A stretch of 12,447 bases of DNA, taken from the UHGV virus genome UHGV-1611333, one strand, 5' to 3'. Below are positions 1,437-12,447 of this stretch, in pieces; within the stretch, counting starts at the first letter, position 1; every line of letters begins with the position of its first letter. This stretch comes from a virus. The notes below the pieces were generated by a model that did not search any database, had not been told where the DNA came from, and saw only the letters and a program-made list of their open reading frames with translations. The translations under genes and the position numbers were made by a program.

Positions 1437-1474
1437 CAAACCGTACCGCTTAAGGCGGATTTAACGGTTTTGAG
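1437..1474 (+). terminator. Terminator-like two-tier hairpin directly upstream of the giant gene start
   Basis: CAAACCGT-ACCGC-TTAAG-GCGG-ATTTA-ACGGTTTT: outer 7-bp stem, inner CCGC/GCGG stem, then a TTTT run. It lies after the lipoprotein stop and ends at the first possible start codon of the giant ORF. Confidence 0.4.
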
Positions 1475-1484
1475 GGGGCTTCCT

Positions 1485-4400
1485 TTGGACAAAATAATTG
1501 ATTCAATTAGCCAGGCCACCAGCATTGGGGCGCTGATTGAAATTGTTAGTCGGTTGCATAAACCGCGAGCTGTAGTGACCTTTGGCGTTAAGAAAGTTGA
1601 TGGCGTCAGTATTCAGAAAACACGCCGGGCAGCAAACAACGCCGCAGTAGATCTTCTTAATTCCCTTCCGCCCGGCTTCGATGGGGCGAAATTAACTGAC
1701 GAACAGCGCCAGATTCTTGCCGGGTATACCGGTGAAGGCGGCCTGACAGATGGTGAGGGCAGCCAATACGAATACTACACGCCACAGTTTATGGCAGAAG
1801 GTATATGGGATCTCTTCGGCGACTACGGTATTGATGGCGGTCACGTACTGGAACCATCAGCGGGCACAGGTATTTTCCAGGAGACAAAACGGCAGGGCAT
1901 GATAATGACCAGCGCCGAACTGTCTCCGATTTCCGGTCGAATAAACCAGCTTTTGCACCCGGAAGACGATGTGAATATTGGGGCGTTTGAGGCGCTGGCG
2001 GCGAAAGACGCAATGTATGACCACGCTGTTGGTAACGTACCGTTTGGTGAAGGGCGTTCCGGCGTTGCCGGGCTTGATCCGGCATATGCAAACGAGAAGA
2101 ACGTTGGCAATTACTTTGTGTTGCGCACGATCGACAAGGTTAAGCCTGGTGGACTAATTGTATTGGTGGTGCCGAATGGCATGACCGATGGTACGAAATA
2201 CAAAAAATTGCGCGATAAAGTCAGCCGTAAGGCGGAATTTTTGGGCGCGCATCGTATGCCTTCTGGTACGTTCAGCGAATCCGGTACAGATACCGTGGTG
2301 GACGTATGGGTATTGCGTAAACACCCGGAAACCTTCCTGGAGATGATCCCCGACACGGATGATGCAACGCTCAAATCGGCAAACGTCCTTTGGGATACCT
2401 TCCTCAAAGGGAAATGGTTTACAACCGAAGGGAAGCGATTTGTTTACGGCGACATGGAACGCACCAGCTTCCGCAATACCCTGGTGGTGAAAAAGGACGG
2501 TCGTGTATCCAATGAGTCGATGAAAACCGCGTTATCACGCCGCTTTGAAAGCCGTATTAATTGGGATTTGCTCGGAGTAACTACCCAGGCATGGCAGGGC
2601 GCAAAAGTAGGGGATAAGCGCCTTGTAGGCGGTATCTGGCATGAGTTTGATGGCCTGAAATGGGTTAAGGACACGACAACCAAATCCTCCGCGCTTGATG
2701 TAAGTCGATATGGTGTTTCGACGTTTGGCGATCTGCAGATCGCGTTCCAGTCAACAAACGGGATTCTGGCTTTGTCATGGGACCAGATATCGGCGATCGC
2801 GTCCGACTATCCATCGGTTGTCAGTGATGAAGTGGCAGCAATGATTCGCTTTGCTGGCAAACAGCGAGAAAAAGACAGGGAGCGCGTTATGCGCGGTGCG
2901 TTGATAGGGCAGTTGATCAACAAGGCACTTGATTTGCGTAACCTGGGGGTGAACGTTGATGACAAACTGGCAGATGCATCCCGCCTGGCGGCAGCAGAAG
3001 TTGCGAAGTATGGACCACCGCACGCGATTAAGCTGAATGGGCTTGCAGAAGCTGGAGCTAAAAACTGGATGACGTTCACTGGCAACGTGAAACAGGATGG
3101 TTCCACTTCTGACCTTCTGGCAGGGCGACTTGATGTAACGGATGGTGCTGCCGGTATTGACTTTACACGTCCGGAACAAGTGATAGCACATCTTTTCAGT
3201 GATGTAGCCCTTAATCCTATAACGCTGGGCGACTTTCGTGAGGCGTTTGCTGGTGAACTGCCAGAGGACGACGACGCGGCCCTTGAATACCTGGCGAAAT
3301 TTGATGATATCGCTATTGATGGGTATGGCTGCCTGCTGCCGATGGACCGCGCCACCAGCGGCGATATTGCAACCAAAACAGCATTGCTGATGGGCTGGCG
3401 TGATGCGTCAACAGGTGAGCAGAAATCGAACTTTGAGCGTCAGTTGGCGAAAATCGAAGAGAAACGCATTTTCACGCCACTAAATAAAGTCACCGTTAAT
3501 CTGAACGCCCGCTGGCTGGATCGCCGCTTGATAAAAGAATTCCTGGCAGAGCAGGGCTATGACGAGTTTAAGTACACTGAACCTGATCTGAAGATCGTCG
3601 ATGGCATTCTGGTATCTCCGGACGATTACGAAGGTAAGGACGGGGTATTTACCGGCTATCAGCTACGAACCGTAAACGGCAAAAACGGGAATGAGTTCAA
3701 GAAGGCCAACAATAAAGACGGCTTCCTGAACCAGTTAGAAAACTACCTGAACGGTGTTAAACCGCGTGGGCAGAACGCTAACGAGTACCTGGATAAAATT
3801 GCTCAACTGGAAGTTAGTTTTAACGACTGGTTACGCACTCACCCGCAGGCTGATCAGATAGCCCGCGAGTATAACGACGCATTCAATGGCTTCATTCCGT
3901 TCACGCACTCTAACGCACCGCTTGGCCTGGAAGGGATTAGTGGAAAGCGCATTCCTCTGACTTATCAGAATGAAGAAGTTCGTCGCTTGTCAGAAGATGG
4001 GCGCGGCATCATGGGATTTGGTACCGGGCTGGGTAAAACCACGACCGCGCTTGCGCTTGAGGCGTATAACTTCGAAACAGGTCGCACTAAACGCACGTGT
4101 ATTGTTGTTCCGAAGGCGGTTTATCAGAACTGGTATCACGAGGCACAGAGCTTCTACAGTGCTGATGCCTTCGCAAATATGATGTTTATCGGTCTGGATG
4201 AAGTTCGTGATGAAGACGGCAATATTCTGACCGCGCCGGTGCTTGATGAAAATGGCGAACCCCGCCTCGACAGTAACGGGCAGCCTCTTACCAGAAATGT
4301 TGTGAAAGAGTCCGCCAGCGCCGTTATCGTTCAGCGCATGAACATGATCCCGTCGTCAAATTGGCGAACGATCATCATGACAAAAGAACAATTCGCGTCT

Positions 4401-7400
4401 ATCCCGCTACGAGAAAAAACCATCGAGGAGAACTCACAGCAAGCTGTCTTTAATGCTGTGGAAATGGGGCGTCTTGATCTGGCGTCCGGTAAACACCGTG
4501 ATGCGCAGAAGAAGAACAAGATTAAGGATCAGGCCGCGAATACCGGTACAACGAAGAAGCAGAATATCCCGTACTTTGAGGATATGAACTTCGATAGCGT
4601 GATTGCCGACGAGGGGCATAACTACCGCAACTCCTTTAATGCCGGGCGTGAAGCGGGACAACTGGCATATTTGCCTAACCCGGCAGTATCCAAGATGGCC
4701 CGCGACATGGCTGTAAAAGCTGCGTACATGATGAAACGCAACAACGGGCGTGGTGTAGTCATGCTGACGGCAACACCGCTGGTGAACAGTCCGATTGATG
4801 CCTTCAACATGCTGTCTACTGTCATTCCGCAGGAAGAGTGGATGCGCATGGGCATCATTACGCCTGATGATTTCGTTCGTGTGTTTGGTAAAACAGCCAC
4901 AGTTCAGGTCCAGAAAATTTCCGGGGAAGTGGAAGAGAAGCAGGGGCTGGTTGGCTTCCAGAACCTTGATGGCCTGCGTGGTATTTTCCATCGCTGGACT
5001 ACTCTGAAGACTGCTGCGGACGTCGGGGCGACGGTTAAAATCCCTGATATTGTCGAGAATACCTTGCAGATCCCGATGACAGGGGAGCAGGAGGCTGCTT
5101 ATGAAGAGCTTCGTAAGCGTGCACAGGAGTTAAGTAGTAAAGATGCGCTGACGGTTGATGAAAACGGGCATATCACAAACGAAAAACCGGATGATTTCAT
5201 CTTCTCCATCATCCGCGACATGGATAAGGTTGCTATAGATCCGGATCTGTATGCCAGTGCGATTACATTCCAGTTCCCCGTTGAGCTTGCAGACAAGGTA
5301 AAAGCTATTGCTGATGCCCTGCCAAAAGTAGCTGGCGGTAAAGTGGCAGATGATGCAGACGAGGCCGAAGAAGACGGCGCTGGTGGACTGGTTAGTACGC
5401 GCACCAGTAAGGTAGTGAAGACCACCTTTAGTGAACATCCGGCGCATGTTGAAATACGCGCCAGCATTGAACTGGAAGCTGAAATACTGAGGGCCATTGC
5501 TGCCGCCGGGATTGATCTACAGCAGGTATCACACCCCATCCCGCCGAAGTATGCCGCGCTGATCGAAAACCTTCGTGAAGGTCTGAAGAACGGTAAACAA
5601 ATTGTCTTCATTGATGAAAAAGCCCAGCACCAGAAGCTGCGCCGTATTATCGCCAGTGCACTGCAAATGCCGGAGCAGGAGATAGGCATTATCAATGCGA
5701 CGACCGTTAGCCAGGCTGGCGGCATCAAGCTGAAGAAGGTGAATAAGCCGACTGAACCTACTCCGAATAAAAACGGTGAATACAAAGAAGGGGCATGGGA
5801 AACCTACTACAGCAAACTTGCCCAATATGAGGATTATCTCTCAGCTAAAAATGATGCTGGCCTTGAGGGTATGGAAGGCATTGCCGCCGACTATAACGAA
5901 GGGCGCACGCGCATCATTATCTGTAACAAGAAGGCTGAAGTAGGTATTAACCTGCATATCGGGACAACCGATATCCACCACCTGACACTACCCTGGACAC
6001 CAGCCAGTATCGACCAACGAAATGGGCGCGGTGCGCGCGTAGGCTCACCGCAAGAGAAGGTCAATGTTCACTACTACTGTGGCAAAGGCACATTTGATGA
6101 TTTCCGCCTGGATACGCTGAAACGCAAGAAAGACTGGATCAAGATGGTGATGACCTCCGACATGTCAGAGATCGCCAATGGTGATGCGGATGATGCAGAT
6201 GAACGCGCCATTATGCTGGCAGCAAACCCGGAAGAACGCCGCGCAATCATGGCTCGCCAGGCACAAGAGCGTGAAGAACGTCTGAAACTGAAAGCACAGC
6301 GCGAGGCCAACAATGCTCTCGATATCTACCTGAAAGCGGCAAACGCCGCCGGAAAAGATATCGGCATGATGGAGACAGAACTGAAAAGCGCGATGGAACA
6401 GATAGAGTATTATCAGCGCAATCTTGACGACCTGATAAAAGCGGGTACGAACAGGAATGGGCAAAAATACGCGCTTGAGCAGTTGAGTAGCTACAGAAAA
6501 CGTGCGCGGGTGCTGCGGTTTGCGATCACCAGGGCAAAAGACGCGGATACCATTATGAAACGCTCTCGTGGTGATGTGGAACGCGCTATTAAGTCTGGTG
6601 TGCTGGATATCAGCATCGATGTTATTCAGAACCCGCAAGAATATATGCGCACTGACAAGAACATTCTGTTGCATAAAGGTAGTTATTACCGTGCAGTCAT
6701 TGATGATCGCGAAACAACAGCGATTGTCCGGGTGGAAAAAATTGACGGTGAAAAAGCACAATACCTCTGCCGTATCGCCTGGCTGGATAGAGCAAGTCGT
6801 TACGCTCGAGCACCGGGGTCAATCGTTACATTGCCGTTTGACTCTGTGATTGAAGCGGTAACTTTTGAAGAGGGGGTAGCTGAATCGCGCGCAACGGCTG
6901 CGCGTGGTGTTCAGTGCCACCAGCTATCAACAATACTTACTCGCGATCAGTTCTATGATGCTATTCGCAATGGGGTAATGAATGTTATTGCTGGTAAATC
7001 TGGTAATGCATGGGGCGGTGGGTCAGCTATTAAATACTGGGCATATCGCACAGATGATGGTCAGATCGCGCTGTCATCGGCCTATGATGGCGTGATAGGC
7101 CAAAAAATCGGGCGAGCATCGGATATAGCACCTGAGCGATGGATATATCCTGATGGCAACGACGAGGCGCTGAAGCGTGAAGTGGCAAAAATACAAGCCA
7201 GTGATAACCCGCTGAATATCGTGGACGGCGAGGGATTCCTCCAGGCATTGTATGGGTATGATTACATCCAGGGAATGCAGGCATGGGGCGCACAGGCAAC
7301 GATGGATGATGTTGCCCAGGAGTTCGAAAACTGGATGGCTGGGCGTGGTCTGTCAGGTCGTTCGCTTAATAAAGTCACTTCTGAAGATATTCTTAGCTTG

Positions 7401-8321
7401 TTCCGCAAACCGTCCGGAGAAGGTCTGGAATCATTCTGGAGGACCGTGCTGGCATACCGTTTATTCCAGGGCAGGATGAAAGCCTTTAGCAATATCGATG
7501 ATATTGAACGGATGTTTAATCAGGTCAAGATAGCGAAAATTAAGACGAAGATCGAAAAAACACGTTCTGCGCTGGTGGCCTGGCGCGATGCATTGTTTGA
7601 GCAATATAAATCACTCAGTGATGCAGATGGATGGGCGGCACTGGAACAGTTGGCGAATAATGGGGTAGATGGAGCGAAACTCGCCATTGTCCAGGCTGAT
7701 AACCCCCTGGAATCACCGGCAGCACAGTGGATTAAGGTGGGGGCTGTCATCAATGCATTTGATGAAAAACACATTAGTAAGGACGATTTTGCTGATGCTG
7801 TTTCTGTTAATCGCCTGGTAGAAATGGCTACCCGCCGCGCCCGTGAGTTGAAAGACGGTGACTATGTGAATGAGTTGCCGGATGCGCTCAAATCAGCAAC
7901 GTGGCAAGACTATGTATCGCTGAAAAACGGCGGGGCCACCGAATCAGAGATCGCGGAAAGGCTTGAACAGGCTGAAAGCAAAAGAGAAGAGCAGGCGGCA
8001 GTGGCTGAAGCCAGAGCTGATGAAGCGGCGAATGATGACTATATCATTGTGGTTAATGATAAGCCGATTCGCGCTAAGGCGCGTGTTCGCGGGCGCTGGT
8101 GGAGCGTCAGCGAGGACGTCGGTGCGGTTTATCTCATTGCCGACCAACCTGGTTCCTCGACAATACGGAACGCCAAAGACGCGATTAAGAAGATTGGCGG
8201 GCGTTTCTGGAATTTTGAAGCAAACCCGGTTGCTGATGTGAACTTTGACCGTCCGGCATGGATGGTATCTACGCGTTACTCGGTAGATGAACTGCGTAAA
8301 ATAATCGCCGATGCGGCCTAA
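1485..8321 (+). CDS. Giant fused N6-adenine DNA methyltransferase / SF2 helicase protein (phage P1 DarB-like antirestriction architecture)
   Basis: 6.8-kb uninterrupted ORF. Methyltransferase motif I VLEPSAGTGIF (about nt 1848-1874) and motif IV GNVPFG (2031-2048). Helicase Walker A GFGTGLGKTT (about 4011-4040), DEGH box (4605-4619), LTATPL motif III and motif VI QRNGRGARVG (6015-6044). The C-terminal ~700 aa are coiled-coil-rich with no recognised motifs. The ORF is open from TTG 1470, but TTG 1485 has a GAGGGGG Shine-Dalgarno 6 nt upstream and is the more likely start. Confidence 0.9.
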   Translation: MDKIIDSISQATSIGALIEIVSRLHKPRAVVTFGVKKVDGVSIQKTRRAANNAAVDLLNSLPPGFDGAKLTDEQRQILAGYTGEGGLTDGEGSQYEYYTPQFMAEGIWDLFGDYGIDGGHVLEPSAGTGIFQETKRQGMIMTSAELSPISGRINQLLHPEDDVNIGAFEALAAKDAMYDHAVGNVPFGEGRSGVAGLDPAYANEKNVGNYFVLRTIDKVKPGGLIVLVVPNGMTDGTKYKKLRDKVSRKAEFLGAHRMPSGTFSESGTDTVVDVWVLRKHPETFLEMIPDTDDATLKSANVLWDTFLKGKWFTTEGKRFVYGDMERTSFRNTLVVKKDGRVSNESMKTALSRRFESRINWDLLGVTTQAWQGAKVGDKRLVGGIWHEFDGLKWVKDTTTKSSALDVSRYGVSTFGDLQIAFQSTNGILALSWDQISAIASDYPSVVSDEVAAMIRFAGKQREKDRERVMRGALIGQLINKALDLRNLGVNVDDKLADASRLAAAEVAKYGPPHAIKLNGLAEAGAKNWMTFTGNVKQDGSTSDLLAGRLDVTDGAAGIDFTRPEQVIAHLFSDVALNPITLGDFREAFAGELPEDDDAALEYLAKFDDIAIDGYGCLLPMDRATSGDIATKTALLMGWRDASTGEQKSNFERQLAKIEEKRIFTPLNKVTVNLNARWLDRRLIKEFLAEQGYDEFKYTEPDLKIVDGILVSPDDYEGKDGVFTGYQLRTVNGKNGNEFKKANNKDGFLNQLENYLNGVKPRGQNANEYLDKIAQLEVSFNDWLRTHPQADQIAREYNDAFNGFIPFTHSNAPLGLEGISGKRIPLTYQNEEVRRLSEDGRGIMGFGTGLGKTTTALALEAYNFETGRTKRTCIVVPKAVYQNWYHEAQSFYSADAFANMMFIGLDEVRDEDGNILTAPVLDENGEPRLDSNGQPLTRNVVKESASAVIVQRMNMIPSSNWRTIIMTKEQFASIPLREKTIEENSQQAVFNAVEMGRLDLASGKHRDAQKKNKIKDQAANTGTTKKQNIPYFEDMNFDSVIADEGHNYRNSFNAGREAGQLAYLPNPAVSKMARDMAVKAAYMMKRNNGRGVVMLTATPLVNSPIDAFNMLSTVIPQEEWMRMGIITPDDFVRVFGKTATVQVQKISGEVEEKQGLVGFQNLDGLRGIFHRWTTLKTAADVGATVKIPDIVENTLQIPMTGEQEAAYEELRKRAQELSSKDALTVDENGHITNEKPDDFIFSIIRDMDKVAIDPDLYASAITFQFPVELADKVKAIADALPKVAGGKVADDADEAEEDGAGGLVSTRTSKVVKTTFSEHPAHVEIRASIELEAEILRAIAAAGIDLQQVSHPIPPKYAALIENLREGLKNGKQIVFIDEKAQHQKLRRIIASALQMPEQEIGIINATTVSQAGGIKLKKVNKPTEPTPNKNGEYKEGAWETYYSKLAQYEDYLSAKNDAGLEGMEGIAADYNEGRTRIIICNKKAEVGINLHIGTTDIHHLTLPWTPASIDQRNGRGARVGSPQEKVNVHYYCGKGTFDDFRLDTLKRKKDWIKMVMTSDMSEIANGDADDADERAIMLAANPEERRAIMARQAQEREERLKLKAQREANNALDIYLKAANAAGKDIGMMETELKSAMEQIEYYQRNLDDLIKAGTNRNGQKYALEQLSSYRKRARVLRFAITRAKDADTIMKRSRGDVERAIKSGVLDISIDVIQNPQEYMRTDKNILLHKGSYYRAVIDDRETTAIVRVEKIDGEKAQYLCRIAWLDRASRYARAPGSIVTLPFDSVIEAVTFEEGVAESRATAARGVQCHQLSTILTRDQFYDAIRNGVMNVIAGKSGNAWGGGSAIKYWAYRTDDGQIALSSAYDGVIGQKIGRASDIAPERWIYPDGNDEALKREVAKIQASDNPLNIVDGEGFLQALYGYDYIQGMQAWGAQATMDDVAQEFENWMAGRGLSGRSLNKVTSEDILSLFRKPSGEGLESFWRTVLAYRLFQGRMKAFSNIDDIERMFNQVKIAKIKTKIEKTRSALVAWRDALFEQYKSLSDADGWAALEQLANNGVDGAKLAIVQADNPLESPAAQWIKVGAVINAFDEKHISKDDFADAVSVNRLVEMATRRARELKDGDYVNELPDALKSATWQDYVSLKNGGATESEIAERLEQAESKREEQAAVAEARADEAANDDYIIVVNDKPIRAKARVRGRWWSVSEDVGAVYLIADQPGSSTIRNAKDAIKKIGGRFWNFEANPVADVNFDRPAWMVSTRYSVDELRKIIADAA

Positions 8322-8357: not shown

Positions 8358-8792
8358 ATGACGACATTAATTGACACTGTAAAACCGACGGAATCCTACC
8401 TTGAGGATATTTTGCCGCAGGCGCTCAATGGCAGGAGTGAAGAGGCGTTTCTGGATGCATATCTGGATGGTATGGTGGAAAGGCTGAAACGAGATCCACA
8501 GCTTTATCATCTTTATGGCCCGTGGTGGCCTGCGCTTAAAACGTTATTGCTGGAGCGCGGCGACATCTCATTTGGACAAGTTGTAGATAGTGATGTGGCA
8601 GAGATCTACAAAATGAGTCGCCCGGCGCTTACGGTTTTATCCGGGCATCTGTATTCGAGCGATCGCCTGGAAAATGACGCGGTATACAATCCCGTTCATG
8701 CTCTGGAAGTCGCGCCTTATGCTGATGATACAGAGCCATACGTGTACACAAGTTACGACGAGTCGATAGAGAAATATCGAATCATGGGGTAG
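8358..8792 (+). CDS. Hypothetical protein (144 aa)
   Basis: ORF starts 36 nt after the giant gene stop, in the same orientation. No recognisable motif. No obvious Shine-Dalgarno; a GC hairpin (8333-8350) sits between an upstream AGGGAG and the ATG. Confidence 0.55.
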   Translation: MTTLIDTVKPTESYLEDILPQALNGRSEEAFLDAYLDGMVERLKRDPQLYHLYGPWWPALKTLLLERGDISFGQVVDSDVAEIYKMSRPALTVLSGHLYSSDRLENDAVYNPVHALEVAPYADDTEPYVYTSYDESIEKYRIMG

Positions 8793-8794
8793 CT

Positions 8795-9055
8795 ATGCGA
8801 AAGAATCGTAGGTTTACGATCGACGACTTAAAAGCGTACTCACAAGGGAAGGGATACGCCCTTGAATACCACCGTTATAAGCGGGTATTTACCCTGCGGC
8901 ATATAAAAAACCCTTCGAAATGGGGATGGATTTATTTTCCGCACACTGACGATAAGCTGGTGGGCCTTGTTGATGATTTATCCTATGAAGGATGGATGAT
9001 CGCTATCGACAAGGCGGTTACAGAAATTAACGAACCGGATAAAATAAACCATTAA
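8795..9055 (+). CDS. Hypothetical protein (86 aa), translationally coupled to the upstream ORF
   Basis: ATG lies 2 nt after the stop of the 144-aa ORF (ATGGGGTAGCTATG), with GGGG serving as a Shine-Dalgarno. Basic N-terminus; no recognised domain. Confidence 0.5.
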   Translation: MRKNRRFTIDDLKAYSQGKGYALEYHRYKRVFTLRHIKNPSKWGWIYFPHTDDKLVGLVDDLSYEGWMIAIDKAVTEINEPDKINH

Positions 9056-9061
9056 AAATAA

Positions 9062-9097
9062 CAAGTTGGGTAAATGACATACAATTTACCCGGCTTG
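9062..9097. other. Strong hairpin after the 86-aa gene
   Basis: CAAGTTGGGTAAAT / ATTTACCCGGCTTG arms (about 14 bp with two G-U pairs) and an 8-nt loop. The flanking A/T tract lies upstream on the + strand, i.e. a U tract on the minus-strand transcript, so it could stop antisense transcription or stabilise the + strand 3' end. Confidence 0.4.
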
Positions 9098-9178
9098 TTG
9101 ACCCGCATCACCATTTACTCTAAAAACAAGTCCGACCTGTTGCATACGCCTATCTCTTTAGTAGTATCCCCCCTGATT

Positions 9179-9206
9179 TTGATAAAACTAACGCTCTTGT
9201 TATTAT
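9179..9206 (+). promoter_or_regulatory. Candidate sigma70 promoter for the VRR-NUC operon
   Basis: TTGATA (9179-9184), 16-nt spacer, TATTAT (9201-9206). A second weaker candidate is TTGACC (9098-9103), 17-nt spacer, TAAAAA (9121-9126). Confidence 0.4.
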
Positions 9207-9230
9207 CGTAATCCTGATTTCAGGAAGTTT

Positions 9231-9240
9231 GTGTTAGAAA
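9231..9240 (+). promoter_or_regulatory. Copy 1 of the recurrent GTGTTAGAAA motif
   Basis: GTGTTAGAAA sits 4 nt upstream of ATG 9245 and about 25 nt downstream of the candidate -10, i.e. an operator-like position in the 5' UTR. Confidence 0.4.
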
Positions 9241-9244
9241 TTTG

Positions 9245-9688
9245 ATGCGAAGACGCAGGCATCATAGTGCGTATTCTGAAATATCCCCGCACGCTGCTGC
9301 ACTAAGAGAGTTAGAAAGAAATCCTGACTTACTAAAAAGGAATTTCGAACATTACGAACAGGTTCGCGTTCTGGATTGGCTGTATCGCAACATGCGATAC
9401 GTGTATGAACACACACACTCAACACCGAACGGCGGCCTGAGAGGCAAAAGGACAGCCATTAAGATGGTGGCAGAAGGTCAGAAGAAGGGCTATCCGGACC
9501 TTTCTATTGACCTTGCTCGTGGTGGGTATCACGGAATGCGCATTGAGATGAAGCACGGGAGAAACCGTCTGACTCCCGAACAGCTTGTCTGGATGACCCG
9601 CCTCACGGAAGCAGGCTATTACTGCTTTGAGGCGCGCAGTGCCGATGAAGCCATAAAAGCTATCACGGAATATGTAAATCTTGATTAA
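9245..9688 (+). CDS. VRR-NUC domain nuclease (PD-(D/E)xK superfamily)
   Basis: N-terminal EQVRVLDWL element and catalytic core GYPDLSIDLARGGYHGMRIEMKHG (PD ... E-x-K) encoded at about 9487-9555. The ORF track starts at TTG 9242; ATG 9245 is used here. Confidence 0.75.
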   Translation: MRRRRHHSAYSEISPHAAALRELERNPDLLKRNFEHYEQVRVLDWLYRNMRYVYEHTHSTPNGGLRGKRTAIKMVAEGQKKGYPDLSIDLARGGYHGMRIEMKHGRNRLTPEQLVWMTRLTEAGYYCFEARSADEAIKAITEYVNLD

Positions 9689-9702
9689 ACGGAGAAATCG
9701 TT

Positions 9703-9903
9703 TTGCGTTTACTTAACGTGGCTGAACTTATCCCTGCCGGTGCTAACGTTGTTGCTCGTCGCTGCTCATGGCCTCATTCTTTCTGTATAGAGCTTAAAAA
9801 GATGGATGATGGGGCATTAGAAGCCCGAAACATAGTTACCGGCGACAAGGTATGCATTACCCCGGAAAGCGCGAAAGCCAATGATTGGGAGTTTGTTCAT
9901 TGA
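9703..9903 (+). CDS. Hypothetical small protein (66 aa)
   Basis: TTG start with GGAG 8 nt upstream (9691-9694), 14 nt after the VRR-NUC stop. No recognised motif. Confidence 0.4.
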   Translation: MRLLNVAELIPAGANVVARRCSWPHSFCIELKKMDDGALEARNIVTGDKVCITPESAKANDWEFVH

Positions 9904-9965
9904 GCAGAAAACACCACGTAAATCTGACGTTTGCTGATGACGCCGGAAGAACCAGAAGCATAACC

Positions 9966-10211
9966 ATGAAAGTTGCTTCCAGGAAAGTAACCGCTCCACT
10001 TATACGAGAGGCCGTAAGTGAACTTGAGATGAGTGAGAATGCAGCTCTGTTATCGGTAAGCTGGCTGGGGAAAATGACGGATCAGGAATACTCGGATGGT
10101 ATACCCCACGGTGAGCGGCAGATAGTAAAGCGCGCGCTTAGAATTTCAGAGGTAGTTGTCGTACTGATAGCTTTGATTTATATGGCATACATGCTACTCC
10201 AACACGTCTAA
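9966..10211 (+). CDS. Small protein with a C-terminal transmembrane helix (tail-anchored), 81 aa from ATG 9966
   Basis: The ORF is open from TTG 9885, which would overlap the upstream gene by 19 nt. The first ATG is at 9966. The C-terminus EVVVVLIALIYMAYMLLQHV is a clear hydrophobic helix. A strong terminator follows the stop. Confidence 0.4.
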   Translation: MKVASRKVTAPLIREAVSELEMSENAALLSVSWLGKMTDQEYSDGIPHGERQIVKRALRISEVVVVLIALIYMAYMLLQHV

Positions 10212-10219
10212 ACGGTCAT

Positions 10220-10246
10220 AAACCCGCCAGTTGGCGGGTTTTTTGT
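10220..10246 (+). terminator. Rho-independent terminator of the VRR-NUC operon
   Basis: AAACCCGCC-AGTT-GGCGGGTTTTTTG: 6-7 bp GC stem, 4-nt loop, U tract, beginning 9 nt after the stop at 10209-10211. Confidence 0.8.
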
Positions 10247-10285
10247 TGCCTGAGTCTTTTTATTGAAATTGCATACTAATAAAAT

Positions 10286-10304
10286 GTGTTAGAAAACTAA
10301 TTTC
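10286..10304 (+). promoter_or_regulatory. Copy 2 of the recurrent motif (GTGTTAGAAAACTAATTTC)
   Basis: Located between the terminator and the RBS (AGGGAA 10310-10315) of the 402-aa gene, 17 nt before ATG 10321. A TTGAAA element at 10264-10269 is nearby. Confidence 0.45.
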
Positions 10305-10320
10305 AAAAAAGGGAACAAAC

Positions 10321-11529
10321 ATGAGTCAGCAAGTAGAATCATCAAGCCTGGAGATCATCTCAACCGCAATTGAAACGCTGCGGACACAAATCGCGCTTAT
10401 ACAGAAACGAAATCCGGGCGATGATCTGTCAAAGCGACTGCATGAGAGCGTCATTGCCACTACAGATAACCTGGTGGCGGAAATCAACCAGCTCCTTGAT
10501 GATGGGGCAGTTGATTACAATAAGCTGGTGGATCAGTTTGAGGAATATCAGCAAGCCGTTAATGATGGCTTGATCCGTTTTTCTCAAGTCACTGGTGTAT
10601 CTGCGACAGTTGAAAGCCTGGGGGATGCTGTTAATCAATTTGCCGCGAATATGCGTAATGAGATCGGCAATCTGGAGGCGCGTCTTGAGCAGGCAAATAC
10701 ATTGCGCAAATCTGCTGAAGTCGATTTGAGTCGTTACAAAAAAGACTATCCGCCAAGCCTGACAAAACGACTGGATGTTGCGGAGAAAGATAACCGCACT
10801 CTGAAAAGAGAGCGTCGGGAACTAAAAGAGCGCTTAACCAAGCTAAATCAGCAATGCGTTGAGTATCAAGGCGAACTCGTCACACTGCGTAAAAAGTTAG
10901 CAGCGGCGCAGAGCATTATTGAAACATTGAAACGAGAGTGCTCAGAGCTTGGTAATGATCTGAATCGCGCCTGTGGCATGGGGCAAAGGCCAGAGACATT
11001 CCCGCTAATGTATGACGGAAGAGAAGCTATTGCCTATATCCATGAGTTTCCGCATGGTCTGGTCGCGGAGACTGGGCAACGTGGCGAAGCGTTGCTGACG
11101 GCAAATTACCATCAGCAAATCAGAACCAGCCGCCTGCTGACGATGGATGTGATCCCGTCAGTATGGGGAACGCCGCTTTACTACCGAATTCCTGGCTTCG
11201 AAACTGACTGGAATACCGACATAGACGAATGTCTGGCAGATAAAATTATGGCGTACCTTGAAACGGATTTTCCACGCTTGCATCGCCGGATTATGGACTC
11301 TAAGGATGCACCGATCGACGAATTGAAAATGCGTCCAGAGACGTTGGAGGCAATCAAGCAGACTGAGTTTGATACGGTGTTCAGTGTGGCCTGCATTCCA
11401 AGCAGCTTTCATGAAAGCATTCCGTTCATGCAGGGCGATCGACGTCAGGAAATAATTGATGCTTGCCGGGTATGGGCGAACGAGTGGGATAAGAAGAACG
11501 GTGGAGTTGAAAATCTTTACGGGAAATAA
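10321..11529 (+). CDS. Hypothetical coiled-coil protein (402 aa) with a C-terminal globular domain
   Basis: Long ORF with an RBS. Residues about 1-220 are heptad-rich and charged (e.g. LKRERRELKERLTKLNQQCVEYQGELVTLRKKLAAAQSIIETLKRE). The C-terminal ~180 aa are non-repetitive. No catalytic motif recognised. Confidence 0.85.
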   Translation: MSQQVESSSLEIISTAIETLRTQIALIQKRNPGDDLSKRLHESVIATTDNLVAEINQLLDDGAVDYNKLVDQFEEYQQAVNDGLIRFSQVTGVSATVESLGDAVNQFAANMRNEIGNLEARLEQANTLRKSAEVDLSRYKKDYPPSLTKRLDVAEKDNRTLKRERRELKERLTKLNQQCVEYQGELVTLRKKLAAAQSIIETLKRECSELGNDLNRACGMGQRPETFPLMYDGREAIAYIHEFPHGLVAETGQRGEALLTANYHQQIRTSRLLTMDVIPSVWGTPLYYRIPGFETDWNTDIDECLADKIMAYLETDFPRLHRRIMDSKDAPIDELKMRPETLEAIKQTEFDTVFSVACIPSSFHESIPFMQGDRRQEIIDACRVWANEWDKKNGGVENLYGK

Positions 11530-11530
11530 T

Positions 11531-11562
11531 GTGTTAGAAAACTAAAATTATCTTTCTAACAT
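11531..11562. promoter_or_regulatory. Copy 3 of the motif, arranged as an inverted repeat (TGTTAGAAA-N12-TTTCTAACA)
   Basis: GTGTTAGAAAACTAAAATTATC at 11531-11552 begins 2 nt after the 402-aa stop. Its 9-bp reverse complement TTTCTAACA lies at 11553-11561, giving a palindromic operator-like site or an AU-rich hairpin. Confidence 0.45.
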
Positions 11563-11598
11563 GTTGATTATGGAATTAACTTAACATAGAATTTTTCG

Positions 11599-11667
11599 TG
11601 CTGGTGGGGAGCTTCCCATGTCGCTTGCGGGTTTGATAGTCACTTCATTGTCTTCTCCCCACCAGCA
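11599..11667. repeat. Perfect 12-bp inverted repeat (TGCTGGTGGGGA / TCCCCACCAGCA) with a 45-nt spacer
   Basis: Arms at 11599-11610 and 11656-11667. A 25-codon ORF (ATG 11618, GGGGAG upstream) starts inside the loop. No flanking U tract, so not a classic terminator. Confidence 0.4.
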
Positions 11668-11681
11668 TCAAACAAATTTAA

Positions 11682-11700
11682 GTGTTAGAAAGTAAATTTA
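11682..11700 (+). promoter_or_regulatory. Copy 4 of the recurrent motif (GTGTTAGAAAGTAAATTTA)
   Basis: Same 10-nt core followed by a TAAATT element, at the entrance to the structured non-coding region. Confidence 0.4.
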
Positions 11701-11903
11701 AGGGTAAGGGAAAGCTCCGGCACCGTGCAAATACATGCCCGGCAGGTTTAGTGCGTAAAGTGGTTTCAGCGAGAGCATTTTACGGAGTAAACGACAGTGA
11801 CTTGAGCCACGGAAGGTCTTTTTAAGGTGTTCATTGATGATGATCTGGCAGTGAGTATGTTAAGTGGGCCAGGCTGCATCGGGTCATCATCAGTGCACAT
11901 CCT

Positions 11904-11971
11904 CAACGTTAAGGAGGCGCAGAGTTGGGTTTTCCTCTTATTTTGCTGACTCTGAGTCTCCTTAACGTTGC
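11904..11971. repeat. Long imperfect inverted repeat / RNA hairpin that sequesters a strong Shine-Dalgarno
   Basis: Left arm CAACGTTAAGGAG GCGCAGAG (11904-11924) pairs with CTCTGAGT CTCCTTAACGTTG (about 11951-11971): 13 perfect bp plus about 6 more with 2 mismatches. AAGGAGG at 11911-11917 is inside the left arm. Confidence 0.5.
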
Positions 11972-12104
11972 GGTAATGCACCTATGCGGATGTGGCCTTG
12001 CATTGTGTTTTGAAAGAATGGGGCAAGGCCGGGGATATCCCCAGGGGGAGGCACCCCCGCTGCAACGAACAGCCATAGACGGCAGTCGAGTGATGAAAAC
12101 GTGA
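11925..12104 (+). CDS. Candidate small hydrophobic peptide (59 aa, TTG start); speculative
   Basis: TTG 11925 lies 7 nt after AAGGAGG. It translates to MGFPLILLTLSLLNVAVMHLCGCGLALCFERMGQGRGYPQGEAPPLQRTAIDGSRVMKT, stop at 12102-12104. The hydrophobic N-terminal half is encoded across the hairpin. It is below the ORF-track size cutoff and may be a structured RNA rather than coding. Confidence 0.2.
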   Translation: MGFPLILLTLSLLNVAVMHLCGCGLALCFERMGQGRGYPQGEAPPLQRTAIDGSRVMKT

Positions 12105-12192
12105 AAAGACTTTAAACCTCGTTACGGCTGGCGTGGCAAACGCGACAACCGGGATAGGACGGTGACGGGCGGAGAGAGAGCCGCTTCAAGAT

Positions 12193-12259
12193 AAAAGCCG
12201 ACTATGGATTCCTTTCTGCGGGCCTTTGAAAGTGAATCTTGCTCAGGCAGTCGGCTTTT
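12193..12259. repeat. 11-bp perfect inverted repeat (AAAAGCCGACT / AGTCGGCTTTT) with a 45-nt spacer
   Basis: Arms at 12193-12203 and 12249-12259, followed by TTTTATGTTG. Either a large-loop hairpin within a structured RNA or a weak terminator. Confidence 0.4.
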
Positions 12260-12391
12260 ATGTTGATACGTAGCGATAACCGCGACAGGCGCGGCGGCAA
12301 GTATGGCGGGGTAGTGACTCCTTCCCCCTCATGACGCCGAGTTGCCAGGTTGACCATACGCCTAAGTGGCAATACCGCGAGTGGGATATTT

Positions 12392-12417
12392 GCCCATCTT
12401 CGGGTGGGCGTTTTTTT
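12392..12417 (+). terminator. Textbook intrinsic terminator with a UUCG tetraloop
   Basis: GCCCATC-TTCG-GGTGGGC (7-bp stem including one G-U pair, C(UUCG)G tetraloop) followed by GTTTTTTT at 12410-12417. A possible ATG of a downstream gene follows at 12431. Confidence 0.8.
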
Positions 12418-12447
12418 CAGGGTTTTCGTCATGGTTAGCGACTTTGC

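Follow-up and report, generated by a model that had tools for sequence, protein, structure and literature searches.

The closest described counterpart of the system examined here is the C1 repressor of bacteriophage P1, which binds 22 dispersed, asymmetric 17-bp operators with the consensus ATTGCTCTAATAAATTT (PMC8546580). In the P1 record, C1 operators are annotated at ref, c4-icd-ant, kilA-repL, dmt, ban, 26/pmgL, ppp, pmgR, pmgT, and lpa, and the annotated ban operator is bivalent and located just 5' of the dicF-like region. Looping mediated by C1 has also been reported for P1. We analyzed a 12,447-nt stretch of the virus genome UHGV-1611333 (hereafter, the window), which shows 85% identity to phage D6 and 98.5% identity to the E. 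coli plasmid pEC361_3, and whose final 180 bp match the 'dicF-like region' of P1. Judged by this sequence similarity, the window is part of a D6-like, P1-related phage-plasmid. It carries a recurrent motif that is real and most likely represents the operator set of the master prophage repressor of this element.

An earlier note on this DNA had reported a 10-mer, GTGTTAGAAA, at positions 9231, 10286, 11531, and 11682. Exactly these four copies were recovered, all on the + strand and all intergenic or at gene starts, although only 0.02 copies are expected in the window and none of 200 shuffled sequences reached four. The 8-mer core GTTAGAAA likewise occurs seven times (0.42 expected), in agreement with the earlier count; two of these copies, at 3734 (darB) and 9310 (VRR-NUC gene), are in coding DNA without the extended flanks and probably arose by chance. 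Copies 2 and 3 do share an identical stretch, as had been described, which is however 18 bases long (AATGTGTTAGAAAACTAA, at 10283–10300 and 11528–11545) and not 16. Copy 3 is indeed paired with its reverse complement (TTTCTAACAT at 11553–11562), 12 bp apart. Hereafter, the extended copies are referred to as sites 1–4, and the partner of site 3 as site 3' (Table 1).

Alignment of the D6 sites extended the motif to T(G/A)TGTTAGAAAAnTAAnnT, an asymmetric element with ca. 19 informative positions and the core TGTTAGAAA. The D6 genome has the motif at ca. 14 places and contains 15 matches at ≤1 mismatch, 13 of which are located in annotated intergenic DNA (10.2% of the genome), compared with 0.79 expected (maximum 5) under a first-order Markov model derived from intergenic DNA (500 trials). 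Intergenic DNA is slightly AT-richer than the genome as a whole (GC content 43.6% vs. 47%), which would lend some plausibility to chance recurrence in AT-rich spacers, but the probability of this explanation is practically nil: both the shuffles with the expected count of GTGTTAGAAA and the composition-matched null rule it out, and the sites are conserved between lineages whose flanking sequences diverge. Using a position weight matrix (PWM) with a site threshold of 12 bits or more, we found 15 sites in D6, 19 in pEC361_3, and 11 in 41 kb of a Shigella plasmid, whereas the same scan of P1 returned no D6-type sites. Inverted pairs are present at five loci, always with a 12-bp gap; the gap between sites 3 and 3' recurs at four D6 loci. 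Single sites and pairs together are comparable to the mono- and bivalent operators of P1. The four window sites are retained at the corresponding positions in D6, pEC361_3, and the Shigella plasmid. The recurrence of the motif therefore withstands both objections that the earlier note had raised against itself, because intergenic enrichment in D6 persists after composition correction and the motif is present at homologous loci in relatives.

Individually, site 1 is kept in D6 and pEC361_3 despite diverged flanks, and site 2 lies inside a 29-bp block (ACTAATAAAATRTGTTAGAAAAYTAAWTT) that is conserved in three lineages with divergent flanks. Sites 3 and 4 are conserved in D6 and pEC361_3, and site 3' is kept in pEC361_3 (22 bits) and degenerate in D6. 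Site 4 is inverted relative to site 3' and forms inverted repeat I4 with 11542–11561.

The genes next to the sites point to a candidate regulator. In D6 and pEC361_3, sites precede lpa, repL, both icd/ant regions, hrdC(rdgC)-dmt, and ref; further sites are positioned between ppp and pdcB, 3' of cre, beside the capsid gene, and at the four loci of the window (ban-type leader, pmgS, and pmgM). In three lineages, a site is positioned 20 nt 5' of the c1 start codon, as expected if the repressor controls its own gene. This gene set is essentially the one that is under P1 C1 control via dispersed 17-bp operators, and 10 of the 13 D6-type loci correspond to P1 operator loci (rough hypergeometric probability 6e-5). 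Because the sites match the P1 C1 regulon, including the site before c1, C1 is the simplest explanation. The link between motif and C1 is thus based on position within the regulon, not on sequence similarity to the P1 operator.

The c1 gene is located outside the window and is encoded in D6 and pEC361_3. D6 orf1 is annotated as the prophage repressor and has no Pfam match; this protein (D6 C1; E = 2.8e-170) and P1 C1 (E = 2.6e-140) both match PHROG 1678 over their full length. In a direct BLASTP comparison, the two proteins are 21% identical (E = 2e-8), and the D6-type repressor is longer (345 aa vs. 283 aa in P1). The pEC361_3 protein (WP_086351773.1) is 80% identical to D6 C1, and a D6-type repressor is encoded in 149 plasmid records. 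We consider it probable that the motif copies are bound as operators by the prophage repressor that the element itself encodes, which is distantly homologous to P1 C1; we infer both that C1 is the binding protein and that its binding represses transcription. The earlier proposal of operators for one element-encoded regulator is accordingly favored by the distribution, the conservation, and the gene set of the sites.

To compare lineages, we examined plasmids and relatives with C1 proteins of different divergence. Plasmids whose C1 is 70–80% identical to D6 C1 retain the motif, whereas three relatives with a C1 that is 28–30% identical have no D6-type sites at ≥12 bits. A de novo search of a Citrobacter relative identified a different operator-like word, CCTTAGAAT, which precedes c1, lpa, rdgC, and ref, follows cre, and is also found close to the VRR-NUC gene. 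The same word occurs in a Leclercia relative at c1, at lpa, downstream of cre, immediately after pmgS, and near the VRR-NUC gene; a Pantoea relative showed no clear equivalent word. The motif follows the element and not the host. Positions that are kept while the sequence changes are the pattern expected for immunity operators, and this suggests at least three putative immunity types among P1-like phage-plasmids (P1, D6, and Citrobacter/Leclercia).

Several observations weigh against the assignment to C1. Lpa and other proteins of the element diverge along with C1. The earlier note had likened the 3' half of copy 4 to the P1 operator, but the motif is no more similar to this operator than expected by chance (PWM comparison: p = 0.29). 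Site 1 is a weak site, and the promoter predicted for it is located 5' of it. In addition, the motif resembles -10 elements both in its 3' part (TAAnnT) and in the TG-T-TAGAAA core. Due to the co-divergence of Lpa, co-variation of motif and C1 cannot name the binder and was dropped as a means of identification; it still argues against a host factor. A by-eye alignment to the P1 operator (9 of 17 positions) was also dropped because the formal test was not significant, and the P1 consensus has no match in the window within three mismatches. The earlier hint to P1 C1 nevertheless pointed to the right system.

Given that D6-like genomes also encode Rha/Ant-type and other regulators, the sites might instead be bound by another element-encoded protein; candidates are the two Ant/Rha-family proteins and a helix-turn-helix regulator. 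The tie of the motif to C1 is positional, and the co-divergence of all element proteins leaves room for such a binder. The correspondence with the P1 C1 regulon, in particular the site before the c1 start codon in three lineages, makes this alternative unlikely.

Regarding the promoter context, the position of the sites relative to predicted promoters varies: site 1 is downstream of one, site 2 follows a terminator, and sites 3, 3', and 4 bracket another. The promoter upstream of site 1 is kept in D6 as TTTACA...TGtTATTAT, and site 1 would span about +17 to +35 from its start point. Site 2 is preceded by a terminator, the stem of which is conserved in D6 and the Shigella plasmid, and hence marks the beginning of a new transcription unit; its surroundings revealed no good -35/-10 promoter. 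At lpa (in D6), beside ref, and downstream of cre, single sites are directed away from the one transcription unit that they could plausibly serve. D6 and the Shigella plasmid carry the lpa site on opposite strands, and pEC361_3 has a pair there. Orientation, pairing, and variable promoter position fit operators better than a directional promoter element.

Two forms of such a directional element are conceivable: a sigma-70 promoter of the extended -10 type (TG-T-TAGAAA), or a box combined with a -10 element and used with a phage activator or sigma-like factor. The conserved positions include TG and a TAnnnT-like part, the co-oriented sites lie 20–35 nt 5' of start codons, and site 2 has the context described above. 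Compared to the extended -10 consensus TGnTAnnnT, the core agrees except at the last position; the orientation is wrong at several single sites. Because of these sites that face away from any gene, the strand switch at lpa, the fixed spacing of the inverted pairs, and the differences in motif sequence among elements with common hosts, we regard this explanation as distinctly unlikely; moreover, a domain search of the window's proteins gave no sigma or RNA polymerase match. The earlier suggestion that the sites serve a dedicated sigma factor or RNA polymerase as promoters finds no support in the two site orientations or in the different box on late operons. The TG and TAnnnT-like positions mean that the sites may have a dual operator/promoter role. 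There is also a slim chance that the motif is, or is in addition, the core of a separate D6-like promoter class, in which a 9-bp box 2 bp 5' of a TAnnnT hexamer is used with a phage factor; if true, this would imply a second, non-Lpa transcription program.

P1-type, Lpa-dependent late promoters were considered as well. D6-like elements encode Lpa (31% identical to P1 Lpa; Pfam BPP1_LPA, PF25716), and P1 late promoters consist of a short box and a -10 element, annotated in P1 as a -22 box (AAGTNACTT) followed by 4 bp and TAnAAT. This P1-type box is essentially absent from D6 and the window, a result that is insufficient alone to exclude Lpa. However, a different box, AAATCACA, precedes a -10-like hexamer at the late operons of D6 (lysozyme, prt, ddrB, R, pmgB, 23, 7, and mat); variants of it are present at lydA, 26, and upfC, and D6 Lpa probably recognizes this box. 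Because of this D6-specific late box, and because the GTGTTAGAAA sites precede lpa, c1, and other early and immunity genes in both orientations, the sites are very unlikely to be late promoters, and we excluded this reading.

For C1 as the probable regulator, we propose the following model. In a lysogen, the C1 homologue would occupy sites that overlap or flank sigma-70 promoters, and early and immunity-controlled units would remain silent. Within the window, repression would act through site 1 on the pmgM-like VRR-NUC operon, through site 2 on the pmgS-like gene, and through sites 3, 3', and 4 on the ban-type leader/tRNA unit. At the leader/tRNA promoter, the upstream inverted pair and a downstream site inverted relative to this pair would provide a geometry compatible with cooperative binding or looping.

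Table 1 Sites, predicted transcription signals, and genes in the window (gene order assigned from the D6 annotation and protein families).
Feature	Position	Strand	Description
Site 1	9230–9248 (core 9231–9240)	+	Operator-type site of lower strength, at VRR-NUC/pmgM-like gene start; PWM 18.9 bits
Site 2	10285–10303 (core 10286–10295)	+	Strongest site; PWM 39.5 bits; 17 nt 5' of pmgS-like ATG
Site 3	11530–11548	+	Left arm of inverted pair, immediately 3' of pmgS stop; PWM 31.7 bits; inverted repeat I11
Site 3'	11545–11563	-	Right arm of inverted pair; core ATGTTAGAAA, 11562 to 11553
Site 4	11681–11699 (core 11682–11691)	+	In leader, ca. 85 nt 3' of promoter; PWM 24 bits
Sigma-70-like promoter	9179–9206	+	TTGATA-16-TATTAT with TG extension; 10/12 matches; upstream of site 1
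Intrinsic terminator	10220–10250	+	3' of pmgR-like gene; stem conserved in D6 and Shigella plasmid
Sigma-70-like promoter	11564–11592	+	TTGATT-17-TAGAAT; ban-type leader/tRNA unit; abuts site 3'; conserved in D6 and pEC361_3
darB-like gene	1470–8321
ulx-like gene	8358–8792
86-aa ORF	8795–9055
VRR-NUC/pmgM-like gene	9245–9688		First possible start codons TTG 9242, ATG 9245
Small ORF	9703–9903
pmgR-like gene	9885–10211
pmgS-like gene	10321–11529		402 aa
Conserved non-coding DNA			ca. 900 bp, 3' of pmgS-like gene; runs into tRNA genes in D6

The extended site 1 overlaps the first possible start codons of the VRR-NUC gene. Upstream of this gene, the sequence AAATAACAAGTTGGGTAAAT at 9053–9099 resembles the variant late box before D6 lydA and upfC and at the same time forms one arm of an inverted repeat of 16 nt (9060–9075/9084–9099); this region may act as a terminator or as a late promoter of the pmgM operon, where LPpmgL is found in P1. 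The AAATCACA box, which is found ahead of at least eight late operons in D6, also occurs in the window, where a candidate D6-type late promoter (AAATCACA, 7 nt, and CATAGT; 713–733, - strand) lies upstream of a CHAP-domain lysozyme-like open reading frame (ORF; 197–688, - strand).

Other features of the window concern gene content. The 86-aa ORF is similar in size to lxc, the C1 co-repressor gene of P1, and occupies exactly its position (gene order darB-ulx-lxc). No similarity of the ORF to P1 Lxc was detected (PHROG 6844 vs. 2160), and this test of the ORF at the lxc position therefore detected no homologue of the co-repressor. A region of about 740 bp (672–1411) is missing at the equivalent position in D6, pEC361_3, and the Shigella plasmid; it includes an ORF (837–1373) that starts with MKKAILATIVCAFALSGC, a lipoprotein-like signal, and has weak prealbumin-fold matches. 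Rfam and tRNA scans of the window returned no matches. In D6, ARAGORN placed three tRNA genes (13455–14160 in L001; 7145–7850 in the D6 record) on the strand opposite to the GenBank annotation, i.e., co-oriented with pmgS and the leader.

The leader region contains a strong hairpin (11594–11672; -32 kcal/mol, z = -4.75), the stems of which consist of two Chi sites in inverted orientation (GCTGGTGG at 11600 and CCACCAGC at 11659), and the stem shows compensatory changes in D6. Chi (GCTGGTGG) is strongly over-represented, with 10 copies in the window (0.37 expected) and 53 in D6, and heads the 9-mer tables of all related plasmids. Further 3', about 600 nt of non-coding DNA (11700–12270) is seemingly more conserved with D6 than the adjoining genes. 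This region contains several long inverted repeats (11821–11906, 11888–11986, and 12186–12266) with no Rfam match, and is located between the repressor-flanked promoter and the P1-shared dicF-like region (12271–12447; terminator 12391–12410). It probably comprises one or more structured RNAs.

An operator sequence would define the repressor-controlled gene set and allow sequence-based assignment of immunity groups (P1, D6, and Citrobacter/Leclercia types) in D6-like phage-plasmids, which are common in E. coli, Salmonella, and Shigella. The repressor/operator pair should be orthogonal to P1 C1, and the promoter of the conserved, uncharacterized leader RNA region would be marked as repressor-controlled. 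The D6 GenBank records carry no operator features, and our literature search, which did not extend to the D6 papers themselves, found no link between the motif and D6, such that an earlier description is possible.

Compared to known systems, the sites resemble the C1 operators of P1 and P7 in being dispersed, asymmetric, and intergenic, and in occurring singly or as inverted pairs. As in P1, they are found at the homologous c1, lpa, repL, immI, dmt operon, ref, ban leader, and pmg genes of an element that encodes a C1-family protein. Unlike in P1, the repressor is longer and only distantly related (see above), and the cores of a pair are 12 bp apart, compared with ca. 2 bp in P1 Obanab, a difference of about one helical turn (ca. 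10 bp). They have in common with P1 Lpa late promoters that a short conserved box is located near a -10-like hexamer and that the P1-like element codes for Lpa, but the sequence and the gene set differ, and the D6-like late box is AAATCACA. The change of site sequence between relatives at retained positions recalls the immunity operators of heteroimmune lambdoid phages, which are, in contrast, clustered in one immunity region and dyad-symmetric, whereas the sites described here are dispersed over the genome and asymmetric. The motif thus does not reveal a new kind of mechanism: dispersed C1 operators are of a known kind, and the D6-lineage version differs from them in sequence and in pair spacing.

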